From assembly GCA_000004695.1 (NCBI GenBank), contig CM000153.2:5120001-5184000 (forward strand): a stretch of 64,000 nt of DNA, given 5' to 3'. The position numbers and the translations under genes were made by a program. Below are positions 38,045 through 43,167 of this stretch, in pieces. Positions within the stretch are counted from its first letter, which is position 1; each line of letters starts with the position of its first letter. This stretch comes from Dictyostelium discoideum (lineage: Eukaryota). The notes beneath the pieces are model-generated. The model saw only the letters and a list, made by a program, of their open reading frames with translations. It was not told the origin of the DNA and made no database searches.

Positions 38045-41000
38045 ATGAGAAAAAAAATAATATTCTTTTCAATATTATTAATTTTTTTTTTATTTATTAA
38101 TAAATCGTTTCAACAATTTGACAATTCTCAATTACAATCACTACAATCACCACAATCGCCACAATCATCACAATCAATCAATGAAATTAATTTATATGTA
38201 AATAAAAATGGAAATGATACAAGTGGTGATGGTACAATAACTTCACCATTTTTTAGTATATGTAAAATATTAAATTTAATTAATCAAACATCACCATCAC
38301 AACCAATAATAGTTAATATTGGAATTGGCAATTATTCATGCACTTATTGCATACGTTATCAATTTGAAAATTTTATTGATATTAAATTTCAACAATATTA
38401 TTATATAAATGATACCATTAATAATAATAATAATAATAATAATAATAATAATAATAATAATAATAATAATAATAATAATAATAATAATAATAATAATAAT
38501 AATAATAATAATAATAATAATAATAATAATAATTATGAAGTAATAATAATAAATTTAAATTTAATGTTTTCAAATAGTAGAATTGAAATTAATGGTATTC
38601 AATTTATATATGAACAAGTGGATATTGGGAATATGATATTAGTAATTGATAATCAATCAGAATTTATATTAAATGATTCAAAAATTCTATTTGATGGATC
38701 ATTTAATTTAACTTATTATTTAATTTCAGTTGAAAATAATTCAACATTAATGCTTTACAACCAATCAACTATAGAGCAAAATAATAATTATTCATTTAAA
38801 ATTTATTTTTTAACATCAAAATTAACAATTTATAATTCAACATTAACAAATCAATATATTACATTTAATGGTGGTGAAAATAGTAATTTACTTGGACTAT
38901 TCTTAATAAATTATTCAACATTTAATTATTGTTTCTTTTTTACAAAAGGTTATTCAAATTTATATCTTACAAATGTTGATGTTATCGGTGGATATTTCGA
39001 TACAAGATTACTTGGTAGTAAAACAAATAATAGTGAATTTATAATTAATAATTGTAATATAATAATTAAAAAATGTAAAGGATTTTGTAATGGAATAAAT
39101 AATTATTTTGAAATTGGATATGGTATAAAATTTAATTTAATAAATTCAAAATTACAAGCAGATTCAAATGAGGATACAAATTATCAATCAATTTTATATG
39201 GTACAGATAAATCAATAATAACAATCGAAAAAGTTTTATTTAAAAATTTATCAACATTTAAATCTTTTATAATTGTAAATGATTGTGAAATAATATTTAA
39301 TGAAAATTTAGGTACTAAAATTAATACAAAATCATTCATTAAATTATATTCAAGTAATTTAGAATTGAATTCATTAGATTTTCAAAATTTTCAATTCATA
39401 TCTACTTCTCAAGGAAACGAAAATAATTTTATTTTCATTGAAATTAAATCATTACCATCAAATTTAACAATTACAAATTTAAATTATAATTTTAATGGTT
39501 TTCCAATTTTAATTTATAATATTGATAATAATAATAATTCAAATAATAGTTCAAATGATAATGGTTTAGATAGTTTAGATAATTCAAATAATAATATGCC
39601 AATTGTTGAATTATTTAATTCAACATTTTTAAATATTCAAGGATTTAAATTTAAAAATTCAATAATTAAATTTAAAAATGTAACAATTGAATCAATAAAT
39701 AATGATAATAATAATTTATTTGAATTTTTAGAATCTACAGAGTTTGAATGTGAAGAATGTTTTTTTAAAAATCCAATTTTAAGTAATAGAATTTATTTAT
39801 TTTCAATTTTATCAAAATCATCAATTAATTTATTAAATTGTAAAATTACAAATTCATCATTAATTGCATTGATTGAGAATGAATCAAGTGCAAAATTTGA
39901 AAAAACAATATTTACAGAACTATTTTCAACAGTTGGTGAAGTTTTAAAATGTAATTCAAATTGTAGGTTGATAATTGAAGATTGTAATTTTGAAAGAGTT
40001 TATTGTATTACTAGTAATTTTTTATTAATTTCAAATTCATCAAGATTGGAAATGAGTGGTACATTATCAAATTTTGGTATTGGTATTGAACCATTTGCAA
40101 TTATAAATAGTAATAGTTTTGTTTATGTAGATGGTATTACAATGAATAGTACTGTATTTCAGACGAATTTATTCTCAATTGATTCTTCATCGAATTTGGA
40201 ATTCTTTAATTCAGAATTTAATGGATTATTTAGTTTTGGTACAATGTTTTTAGTTTATGATGATTCTAGACTATCATTTGAAACTACCTCATTGATTGGA
40301 AATACATTTTCAATATTAATAGATTCAAAAGATTCAATAATTGATTTTAAAAATATTGAATATGTTAATAATTTAGGTAAATTATTATCAAGTTTAGGGG
40401 ATCATATTGATTTTGAGTCATTCAAAATCGATAGTATTAAAGGTATATCATTTGTTAATTTATTCACATTTAATGATTCACGTGTACATTTTACAAATAT
40501 AACCATTTCAAATAATTATTTTATGGGTAGTGTTATTGAATCATATAATTCGGATTTGGAATTTACTGAATTTAATTTCATATCAAATGAGAATCTTTAC
40601 AATTTAAATGAAAATATTAGAATTTCATCATCAATGTATTTTGTTGAAAATACAAATGTGGAATTTGAAGATTCAACAATATTATTTAATATTCAAAATA
40701 GTGATCATTTCATTTATATTGGTAGTGATAGTAAATTAAAATTTACTCAACAATCAAACATTCAAGGTAACAATATTTTATCAAGTGGTTCTTATTTAAT
40801 TTATTCAAGTGAATCTGATATTATAATTGATTATTCTTCATTTAAATCAACTCATTCAGTAACTGGTTCAATTGGTTTATTTAGTCAATCATCAATTTCG
40901 ATGAATAAAGCACTTTTTACAAATAATTCAAATTCTTTTAATGGTGGTGTAGCTTATATTGATGAAACTTCAAAAATCTCTAAATTACAATCATCATTTT

Positions 41001-43167
41001 TTCAATTAAATTCTGCATCAATTGGTGGTGTTTTTTATACTGAATTAATTAAATATCAATTATTTAATAATATATCTTTTCCAAATAATTATTTTGGTAA
41101 AAATAAAGCAATTTATGGTGATATTATAGCTTCAGGTAAATAAATTTATTAATTAATAATTTATTTATTAATAGTTATTAATTTTTTTTTTTTTTTTTTT
41201 TATAAACAATAATAGTACCAAGTATTGTTAGTATTGAATTACCAGATTTAAATTCAAGTTTATCAAAACCAACAATTAAAGTTGAAGATTTTTATAAAAA
41301 TTTAATTTCAGATAGAGTTTATTTATCAAATGTAACAATTTCAAAAGTAACTCTTTATAATTCAATAATTGTTAAAAATGAACAAGTTGTATTAAAAGGT
41401 GGTTTTGGTACATTTGATTTCCAATTTAATGCTCCACCAAATGTTAATTATTTTTTAGTAAGTGTATTAATTAAAGAATTAAATATATCTGTAGAAATTA
41501 AAGCAAATAGAACAGTTTGTAAAGATTATCAAATTTATAATAATGAAACTGGTATATGTACATCATGTCCAATGGGTTCTTATAATTATCAAGGATCATG
41601 TAAAATTTGTTCAGAAAATATAATTTGTATGGAAAGTGATATTCATTCAATTAATAATTATTATTTAATTATTCAAAATAATAATAATAATAATAATAGT
41701 AGCAATAATAGTAGCAATAGTAGTAGCAGTAGTAGTATTAGTAGTAGTAGTAGTGGTAGTAATGATAATGATGATAATAACAATAATGGTATTGGATTTT
41801 TAAAAGTTTATGAATGTTCAATTGGAGTTTGTTTTGAAAAAAATAAATGTTTAAATGAATTATATCGTGGTAATTTATGTTCAAGATGTATTAATGATAC
41901 AGATTATGGAAATGATGATGAATTTGAAATGTATCCTTCAAATGGAAAGAATTTAGTTAGATGTTGTAAAGATTTTAAATCAATTTTATTTTTACCATAT
42001 GTTTTATTTTTAATAATTTTTGGTTTAATTTTATCATTATTTAAATATAATTTATCAACATTAATAATACCAATAGTTTTAATGATTCAAATTAATTCAA
42101 TTATTTTCATTTCATATCCTGGTATTTATTTATTACAATTATTTAGATTTTCAATTGATTTCATTGATGATATTTGTAGTTTTAGATTAATATATTATTG
42201 GAAATCATTTTTATCATTAATTTCAATATTGGTGGTTTTTTCAATTGGTTTTTCAAATTTATCATTTAATATAATTAATTCATCATCATCAATTCTACCA
42301 CAAATTGCTAAAAGAAATTTAATGAATTTCAAATTGATTGAAAAAAATTATAAATTACATATTAAATTTAAAAATGATTTTAAAAGAAATTTAAAAGTAA
42401 AATTTAATTTAATTATTTTATTATTTCAACCATTATTATTTAATTTATTCTCTTTAGTAATTTCAAAAGAAATTAATTCAATCAATTATTTATTAATTGA
42501 TATTTCAATAATTTTTAAAAATTCAACTCATTCATTATTTTATTCAATTTCTTTAATTTTATTAATTTTAATATTTTTAATTTTAACAATTTTAATTTTA
42601 AATTGTTTTTTTTATAAAATAATTTATAATAATGATAATAATAATAATAATAAAAATAATAATAATAATATAAATAATAATAATAGTAATAGTAATAATA
42701 ATTTTTATTATAATAAATTTATTAAAATTATTTCAATTGGTTCAACATATTTATTATTTAATAATAATAAAAAATCAAATGAATATAGGGATCAATTTAA
42801 ATGGTGGGATTTTATTATAATTTTAAAATCAATTATTATTATTATAATTTCAATTATAATGTTATTCAATCATGTATTATTCATTTTAATAATAACAACT
42901 ATTCAATTCATTTTCTCTTATTTACAATTTGTATTCCATCCATATAAGAAATTGACAGATTATAAATTAAATAATTTTTTAAATTTATTACAATTGGTAA
43001 TATTGGTAATGATTGATTCAAAACTTATTGGTTCAAATGAATCACTTTTTAATATAGGTTTATTAATTACAATATTAACTTTTACATTTTCTTTAATATT
43101 TTCAATAATTTATTATAAATTTATTATAAATTTAAATCAAAATAATAATAAAAATAAAAATTGTTAA
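38045..43167 (+). CDS. Chimeric protein of about 1680 aa: signal peptide, PMP-like parallel beta-helix ectodomain, Cys-rich module and a C-terminal multi-pass (about 7-9 TM) membrane domain; exons 38045-41135 and 41216-43167
   Basis: A phase-1 intron (donor GTAAAT at 41136, acceptor AG at 41214-41215) joins ORF 38045..41143 to the frame of ORF 41572..43167 with no stop in 41216-41571. The protein has a signal peptide, a poly-Asn tract, GG[AV]xY/FxxN beta-helix repeats (NGGVAYIDE, IGGVFYTE), a cysteine-rich segment (CKDYQIYNNETGICTSCPMGSYNYQGSCKICSENIIC...CSIGVCFEKNKCL) and then multiple hydrophobic helices. Confidence 0.65.

Follow-up and report, generated by a model that had tools for sequence, protein, structure and literature searches.

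The open reading frame (ORF) list of a 64,000-nucleotide stretch of Dictyostelium discoideum DNA (assembly GCA_000004695.1, contig CM000153.2, positions 5,120,001 to 5,184,000 of the forward strand; referred to here as the window and numbered from its first letter) contains two neighbouring plus-strand ORFs, 38045-41143 and 41572-43167. They raise the question whether two proteins are encoded here or two parts of a single one and, in the latter case, what kind of protein this would be. An earlier note, made by inspection of the sequence, had joined both ORFs through one intron into a fusion of a beta-helical ectodomain of the Chlamydia polymorphic membrane protein (PMP) type with a polytopic membrane domain; we found the coordinates and the sequence of both ORFs to be as given there. 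Here, we conclude with a probability of about 80% that the locus is a single two-exon gene for a 1680-residue surface glycoprotein made up of a signal peptide, a beta-helix, a linker, two Cys-rich modules and a membrane core of nine transmembrane (TM) helices that is homologous to the core of the apicomplexan cysteine repeat modular proteins (CRMPs), and that the protein belongs to a dictyostelid family.

We began with the junction between the two ORFs. The first ORF ends with ...GCT TCA GGT AAA TAA, and its stop codon TAA occupies positions 41141-41143. These letters also contain a canonical splice donor, G|GTAAAT, which places the last base of exon 1 at 41135 and the first base of the intron at 41136. 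The acceptor AG is found at 41214-41215 within ...TTTTTTATAAACAATAATAG|TACC, with exon 2 beginning at 41216. The only other upstream AG in the spacer lies near 41176 and leads to a stop within ten codons, as read from the sequence. The spliced coding sequence comprises 5043 nt and specifies 1680 residues plus stop without a single internal stop codon. Read in the frame of the second ORF, the 356 nt (118 codons) that separate the acceptor from the ATG at 41572 contain no stop; given the local composition, such an open frame is expected by chance with a probability of ~4e-6, and none of 20,000 shuffles was free of stops. GC content is 5% in the intron, 21.6% in the 356-nt stretch, 19-22% in the exon sequence beside the intron and 7-11% in the flanks.

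Public annotation and related genes were then consulted. In assembly GCA_054883475.1, a 1680-residue product labelled 'hypothetical' is called over 5123 nt, adjoining the orthologue of DDB_G0286983, and this range corresponds base for base to positions 38045-43167 of the window. The public model must hence splice out exactly 80 nt (5123 - 3 x 1681 = 80). The exact sequences of the joined protein and of either ORF product were absent from the protein collection looked up. The orthologue from D. purpureum has an annotated 58-nt phase-1 intron (GTAAGT...TTTTAG, L005 5768-5825) straight after the same '...IAS' codon. In a paralogue from Tieghemostelium lacteum (P0011), the junction region is contained in one unbroken exon, the sole intron being located after residue 31, and the two halves therefore form one protein whatever the splice prediction. 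In the full-length alignment, twelve homologues of more than 1300 residues and the truncated D. purpureum model span the junction without a gap; it reads 'NKAIYGDIIAS|VPSIVSIELPD' in the protein studied here, 'NKAIYGNTIASYGNLILLLLPD' in D. purpureum and 'SSIYGNIIASEPSFLKVSEP' in homologue P0009.

These findings bear directly on the simplest alternative, namely that there are two independent genes, one for a secreted beta-helix protein terminating at the TAA at 41141-41143 and one for a polytopic membrane protein starting from the ATG at 41572. A plain ORF list indeed yields two ORFs, the stop is in frame and the ATG is present, but the 118 codons in front of this ATG are improbably open and are conserved in the homologues, and the two frames are separated by merely 80 nt of 5% GC carrying canonical splice signals. 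Furthermore, the public annotation has the 1680-residue product, the homologues of four other species are each one protein of 1.4-1.9 thousand residues, one of them without an intron at this place, and the second ORF on its own would be left without a signal peptide and without half of the first Cys-rich module. We consider two separate genes to be next to impossible and take it as confirmed that the two ORFs are two exons of one D. discoideum gene with a single 80-nt phase-1 intron. The intron proposed in the earlier note is thus borne out by its canonical GTAAAT donor, the open 356 bp, the public model and the D. purpureum intron. In DNA of this kind (the window has a GC content of ~22%, poly-Asn tracts and very AT-rich spacers), a prokaryote-style ORF list breaks any intron-containing gene. 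The remark that the locus had been split into two unrelated-looking proteins applies to such a list only, as eukaryotic annotation had already joined them, and our result on gene structure adds nothing new to the public 1680-residue model.

What kind of membrane domain does the second exon encode? Hydropathy and an AlphaFold2 (AF2) model computed from 12 sequences (pLDDT 71.5, pTM 0.75) both gave nine membrane-length helices. Of the seven to nine helices expected earlier, the polytopic C-terminus was therefore recovered, with nine helices, and the seven-helix bundle was not. With the ectodomain placed outside, 20 Lys and Arg residues fall on the inner and 5 on the outer side, and, together with the signal-peptide-like N-terminus, the model fits a predicted nine-pass topology with the N-terminus outside and the C-terminus inside (N-out/C-in). 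The core carries the motifs LQINS..FFSY, LPLFR.SID...C, PL.FN, YL..D, Y+..FKWWD.....+S and HP(Y/F)KK. In the predicted cytosolic loop between TM5 and TM6, 'EYRDQFKW(WD)' aligns with 'GY..YRWWE' of Toxoplasma CRMPB (TgCRMPB) and 'KKYWYWE' of TgCRMPA; the poly-Asn insertion in this loop (42616-42720) is missing or much shorter in the homologues. Pfam returned nothing but sub-threshold matches for the whole protein and eight segments, sequence searches of the PDB with exon 2 and with the family profile of the TM core found no match, and the best Foldseek match of the TM core had an E value of 3.1, which is at noise level.

CRMPs are rich in Cys, possess nine TM domains (Singer et al., 2023; PMC9815656) and have an N-out/C-in topology (PMC9815656, PMC9670195). 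The motifs Y..(K/R)WW(D/E).....(R/K)(K/S) and (H/Q)P(Y/F).K led us to compare the dictyostelid proteins with this apicomplexan family. The six cores of TgCRMPA, TgCRMPB and PbCRMP1-4 listed in the S2 Table of Singer et al. (2023) were aligned, and the resulting profile was compared with the dictyostelid family alignment by hhalign. The two profiles matched with a probability of 98% and an E value of 2.7e-13 over 155-377 columns, the longer match being obtained with a relaxed alignment threshold and extending from the first juxtamembrane Cys to TM9. The alignment pairs the C..C..C..LC..C pattern, the Cys after TM2, the extracellular YL..D hairpin, WW(D/E) and P(F/Y).K. As negative controls, the reversed profile gave an E value of 0.034 and ten column-shuffled profiles gave values of at least 0.45. 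Judged by this profile comparison, the 'conserved core' of CRMPs from apicomplexans has its homologue in the juxtamembrane Cys-rich module together with the nine-helix core. The match and its controls make the protein a member of the CRMP family by its core, with a lineage-specific beta-helix as ectodomain.

The likeness to TgCRMPA/B and Plasmodium CRMP1-4 extends over most of the architecture. It includes a signal peptide followed by a large extracellular N-terminus, a juxtamembrane EGF-like Cys-rich module with the same C..C..C..LC..C spacing, the nine-helix N-out/C-in core, Y...(K/R)WW(D/E).....(R/K)(K/S) before TM6 and (Q/H)P(F/Y)(D/K)K after TM7. The extracellular parts differ, with a beta-helix bearing PMP-type rungs in D. 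discoideum and Kringle, MAR, lectin or multiple EGF modules in CRMPs. D. discoideum also has neither rhoptries nor micronemes; MIC15 and TSP1 are partners of CRMPs. That D. discoideum possesses CRMP homologues has already been stated in a single sentence of an earlier paper, according to which Q86I19 and two further proteins have a similarly predicted nine-TM core and a different extracellular part (Singer et al., 2023; PMC9815656). The studied gene is possibly among these two additional homologues. To this we add a test of homology with controls, a topology of nine helices, an account of how beta-helix and CRMP-like core are combined in dictyostelids, and the finding that only the last rungs carry PMP repeats.

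The combination of a large ectodomain resembling an adhesin with a polytopic domain had reminded the author of the earlier note of the logic of adhesion G protein-coupled receptors (GPCRs), and a seven-TM (7TM) receptor of the adhesion-GPCR or family 3 type with a PMP-like ectodomain has to be weighed against a CRMP-type core. D. discoideum offers a precedent in GrlP, GrlQ and GrlR, which were reported to have long N-termini homologous to Chlamydia PMP and a family 3 7TM domain of the GABA-B/mGluR type (PMC1885808). PANTHER, moreover, calls CRMPa 'GPCR-like' (PMC9670195). The protein studied here shares with the Grl proteins the organism and the PMP-like extracellular region on a polytopic membrane domain, and with adhesion GPCRs, by analogy only, the overall arrangement. 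However, it has nine helices rather than seven, and neither Pfam 7tm_1/2/3 nor GAIN or GPS was found on its segments at E <= 10. The best Foldseek match had an E value of 3, and the lone GPCR in the list ranked 21st with an E value of 9.5 and a TM-score of 0.15. Sequence or structural similarity to adhesion GPCRs and a 7TM fold are thus lacking. The adhesion-GPCR analogy has been proposed before for CRMPs themselves, with the caveat by the same authors that these are not bona fide GPCRs (PMC9670195). A GPCR at this locus therefore appears very improbable, and CRMP-type nine-TM homology takes the place of the 7TM reading.

The N-terminal half of the protein agrees with the expectation of a signal peptide, a poly-Asn tract and a long right-handed beta-helix. 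A segment equivalent to the signal-peptide-like MRKKIIFFSILLIFFLFINKSF, assigned from hydropathy and a basic n-region, is present in every family member, and the tract of 38 Asn residues, located at a loop of the helix, is shorter or missing in homologues. The AF2 model of residues 163-1030, built from a 13-sequence family alignment, shows short repeating strands stacked upon each other (mean pLDDT 77.2, pTM 0.73). Foldseek searches of the PDB with this model listed 50 matches, 49 of which are right-handed parallel beta-helices (best E value 1.4e-4), among them PL6 alginate lyases, Ag43, phage tailspikes and the epimerase AlgE4; only the match at rank 43, a pentapeptide-repeat protein, is of another kind. 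TM-scores were low, as expected with long curved helices. While the Pfam model Beta_helix (PF13229) did not match the studied protein itself, it was exceeded in the homologues P0017 and P0020, both of which are less AT-biased, with 48.1 and 50.5 bits against a cut-off of 25.9 bits. A sequence search of the PDB with the exon-1 half gave no match. The ectodomain is accordingly modelled as a right-handed parallel beta-helix of roughly 1000 residues. It would be heavily glycosylated, as 40 N-glycosylation sequons are present across residues 23-1285, most of them within the beta-helix.

The extent of PMP-type repeats turned out to be much smaller than proposed. Over about 900 residues, GG[AV]-x-Y and F-x-x-N repeats had been expected, and we found GG[AV]xY only twice, at residues 967 and 994, a count not reached in any of 2000 shuffles. 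FxxN occurs 13 times, compared with 16.0 +/- 3.5 times in shuffles, and is thus at chance level; GGA[ILV] does not occur in the protein. A search with the Pfam model Chlam_PMP (PF02415), which the earlier note had suggested as a check, yielded no match with the whole protein and 8.3 bits (E 4.4) with residues 951-1031, below the gathering score of 20.6 bits. The aligned segments of Acytostelium subglobosum P0017 and T. lacteum P0011 passed this score with 34.8 and 22.8 bits, respectively. In addition, the family profile matched the PMP-repeat segment of Rhombotarget A from A. baumannii in the PDB with an E value of 7.9e-5, and this segment itself scores 23.5 bits for Chlam_PMP. Real, if degenerate, PMP-type repeats are hence limited to the final two or three rungs, the other ~800 residues being generic beta-helix. 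With Chlamydia PMPs and other bacterial proteins of this kind (Rhombotarget A, E. coli Ag43), the ectodomain has in common the right-handed beta-helix and rungs that follow the pattern N..F..N.a..GG(A/V)(I/V)Y. It differs from them in having only two or three such rungs with a Pfam score below cut-off, and in being held by a eukaryotic nine-TM helical anchor rather than by an autotransporter beta-barrel or a GlyGly-CTERM anchor. No autotransporter domain was found in the protein by Pfam, the C-terminus being a nine-helix bundle instead. Evidence for a recent bacterial origin of the ectodomain was not obtained.

The same structural matches could be taken to mean that the ectodomain is an enzyme of the polysaccharide lyase/hydrolase type and the nine-TM core a transporter or channel, and that the protein is not a receptor. 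PL6 alginate lyases, GH110, GH87 and tailspike depolymerases are indeed among the best ectodomain matches, and transporters and channels occur among the weak matches of the TM core. The ectodomain matches are marginal, though (E values from 1e-4 to 1e-2, TM-scores of 0.1-0.3), reflect a generic beta-helix fold and came without identified catalytic residues, and those of the TM core are at noise level. CRMPs are the only significant relatives of the core, and we know of no transport activity of these proteins. An enzyme coupled to a transporter is unlikely on these grounds, and a surface glycoprotein with a CRMP-type core is preferred.

Between the beta-helix and the membrane lie a linker and two Cys-rich modules. 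Homologues conserve the linker, whose codons precede the ATG at 41572. The modules together contain 13 conserved Cys residues, the respective columns being nearly invariant in the family alignment and invariant in module 2. Module 1 matched Ephrin_rec_like (PF07699) with an E value of 0.0098 and 16.1 bits, against a cut-off of 23.1 bits, and TNFR_ELAPOR1_6th matched weakly at the same place in homologues (up to 19.3 bits; cut-off 33.2). For module 2, whose seven Cys residues lie within positions 1231-1281 of the protein, hhalign aligned 'YECS-IGVCFE--KNKC...LCSRC' with 'TECPIQNACLS--HGVC...LCSECRR' of CRMPs, and DUF7630 gave weak matches with homologues P0017 and P0020 (up to 23.9 bits; cut-off 27). 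The Asn/Ser insertion that separates the two modules is not present in homologues. The Cys-rich region announced in the earlier note is therefore real, and it consists of two modules. Its designation as TNFR/ephrin-receptor-like is no more than plausible, the Pfam matches being consistent in kind and all below threshold.

To define the family, the 649 residues of exon 2, which include the 118 residues encoded 5' of the ATG, were searched by phmmer against 1.84 billion representative sequences. Twenty proteins were retrieved, twelve of which are 1331-1941 residues long and matched at their C-terminal end. All ten matches that were looked up are dictyostelid, comprising D. discoideum paralogues as well as proteins from D. 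purpureum, D. dimigraforme, T. lacteum and A. subglobosum. The protein is thus a member of a dictyostelid-specific beta-helix-CRMP-like family with at least three paralogues in D. discoideum. One of them, P0002, whose 90% cluster holds DDB_G0272102 (Q55A59), is 37% identical to exon 2. DDB_G0272102, Q86I19 and the two other proteins noted by Singer et al. (2023) have the same family membership and architecture; Q86I19 and DDB_G0272102 are paralogues of the studied gene and not the same gene. The features of the locus are compiled in Table 1.

Table 1. Features of the two-exon gene; positions refer to the window and residues to the 1680-residue product.
Feature	Position	Strand	Residues	Basis and remarks
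Exon 1	38045..41135	+	1-1030 and first base of codon 1031	ORF list, translation; start and extent agree with the public 1680-residue call
Signal-peptide-like N-terminus MRKKIIFFSILLIFFLFINKSF	38045..38110	+	1-22	Kyte-Doolittle peak of 2.0 at residues 5-23 after a basic n-region
N-terminal beta-helix cap, family motif 'NGNDTSGDGTITSPF'	38186..38419	+	48-125	'N(G)NGTIxNP(F/Y)' kept in the family consensus
Poly-Asn tract, 38 residues	38420..38533	+	126-163	Translation
Right-handed parallel beta-helix ectodomain (predicted)	38534..41134	+	164-1030	AF2, Foldseek, PF13229 in homologues
Last rungs with PMP-type motifs (FTNNSNSFNGGVAY, FQLNSASIGGVFY, NKAIYGDIIAS)	40895..41134	+	951-1030	Motif count, Chlam_PMP scores of homologues
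Intron	41136..41215	+		80 nt, phase 1, GTAAAT...T-run...AATAG, 5% GC
Exon 2	41216..43167	+	Last two bases of codon 1031 to 1680	Stop codon at 43165-43167
Linker between helix and Cys-rich module	41218..41499	+	1032-1125	Conserved 'D(F/Y)YxN' and 'GxGxF' (family alignment)
Cys-rich module 1, six Cys	41518..41628	+	1132-1168	TNFR/ephrin-receptor-like, sub-threshold
Low-complexity Asn/Ser insertion	41674..41790	+	1184-1222	Translation; between both Cys-rich modules
Juxtamembrane Cys-rich module 2, seven Cys	41809..41967	+	1229-1281	Paired by hhalign with the EGF-like part of the 'conserved core' in CRMPs
Nine-helix membrane core (predicted)	41980..43128	+	1286-1668	AF2, Lys and Arg count, hhalign against CRMPs
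Predicted cytosolic loop TM5-TM6	42616..42804	+	1498-1560	Poly-Asn insertion and conserved 'EYRDQFKW(WD)'

Two deposited models of family members call for comment in their own right. The D. purpureum protein XP_003292643.1 (GL871297.1, L005 7001-7560) is deposited with 1331 residues and stops with '...HIISLKNL' after TM4. Its frame runs on without a stop through sequence resembling TM5-TM9, including 'YRKEFRWWDFIFILKN' and 'HPQLKRKNYY', and a spurious 3' splice seems to have cut the public model short. The D. dimigraforme protein KAN0053184.1 (P0006, 1941 residues) has ~330 extra N-terminal residues ahead of a signal-peptide-like 'MKLLTFSIYFILFQISCILVNSQ', which suggests a gene-fusion error in the annotation.

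Several points weigh against a CRMP-type protein encoded by one spliced gene. Splicing at the junction is inferred from sequence, annotation and conservation, and the identity of the public product with our translation is taken from its length and range only. No Pfam model matches the TM core, the CRMP alignment has an identity of only ~17-18%, and phmmer found no non-dictyostelid relative. The link to CRMPs is carried by one controlled profile-profile comparison and a one-sentence remark in the literature. Finally, a function in contact sensing, dimerisation and secretion would be transferred from Apicomplexa and ciliates, and amoebae have neither rhoptries nor mucocysts.

The surroundings of the gene were also inspected. 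The neighbouring single-exon ORFs 43425-44927 (minus strand) and 49198-50721 (minus strand) match exactly the D. discoideum AX4 proteins DDB_G0286983 (Q54L10) and DDB_G0286993 (Q54L08), respectively, which identifies the window as nuclear DNA of D. discoideum; when the literature was searched for the DDB_G identifiers of the neighbours, the CRMP paper was the only result. About 3.5 kb from the studied gene, a 444-residue ORF at 46703-48037 (minus strand) belongs to a 17-member cluster at 90% identity, whose many different DDB_G identifiers are spread over several chromosomes of D. discoideum. This ORF is multicopy (transposon-type), and the local GC content is raised (0.30) with a strong AT skew. 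Two further long ORFs were tried as paralogues and found to be unrelated. The first, at 6978-11999 (plus strand; BLASTP E > 1), encodes 1673 residues, a size near that of the studied gene, and contains a long poly-Asn tract besides stretches that are LRR-like and ankyrin-like. Since its exact translation is absent from the protein collection, this ORF probably represents a single exon within a larger spliced gene. The second, at 51363-54521 (minus strand), encodes 1052 residues; its N-terminus is TM-like, one region is rich in PKK/VEEP, and nearly identical coiled-coil repeats of the 'SKDQELQSTKDQLSS' type form a long array. A D. purpureum gene located upstream of the orthologue by two positions (L005 10-1572) encodes a 7TM protein of the GPR180/TMEM145 type (PF10192), and no sign of such a gene was seen in the examined neighbourhood within the D. 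discoideum window.

How might such a protein work? The beta-helix would present a long, heavily N-glycosylated surface that binds an extracellular partner, likeliest a glycan or the surface of a cell or prey. By analogy with other beta-helix adhesins and lyases, its task would probably be the recognition of glycans or surfaces. The Cys-rich stalk and the nine-TM core may then pass on or organise the response. In Toxoplasma, CRMPA and CRMPB are modelled to pair via their TM cores with the N-terminus outside and are needed for rhoptry exocytosis upon host contact, and related proteins of Tetrahymena are needed for mucocyst discharge (PMC9815656, PMC9670195). As D. discoideum has at least three paralogues, similar pairing would be possible, and a CRMP-like core that dimerises with a paralogue could link contact outside the cell with a response within it, for example regulated secretion. 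By this analogy, a mechanism of contact-triggered secretion, phagocytosis or adhesion in amoebae can be put forward as a tentative proposal, and one with rather low odds. We regard as doubtful the more specific proposal that dictyostelid beta-helix-CRMPs are contact sensors, in which the beta-helix would bind glycans of prey or cell surfaces and nine-TM hetero-oligomers would trigger a secretory or phagocytic response.

The value of the present finding lies in classification: a 'hypothetical' protein without a Pfam domain, whose membrane half has no solved structural relative, is yet a clear homologue of the CRMP core as judged by profile comparison. It also documents the eukaryotic use of PMP-type beta-helix rungs atop a helical membrane anchor. 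Toxoplasma and Plasmodium depend on the CRMP core for discharging their rhoptries and invading the host. Dictyostelium, a tractable and free-living haploid, has a small CRMP-like family that could be a simple system for the biochemistry of the nine-TM core. Should the dictyostelid proteins indeed be contact sensors, the nine-helix receptor of the CRMP type would be older than the Alveolata, an ancient switch of eukaryotes from contact to exocytosis and not a speciality of parasite invasion, and this switch could be studied in a genetically easy, free-living amoeba.

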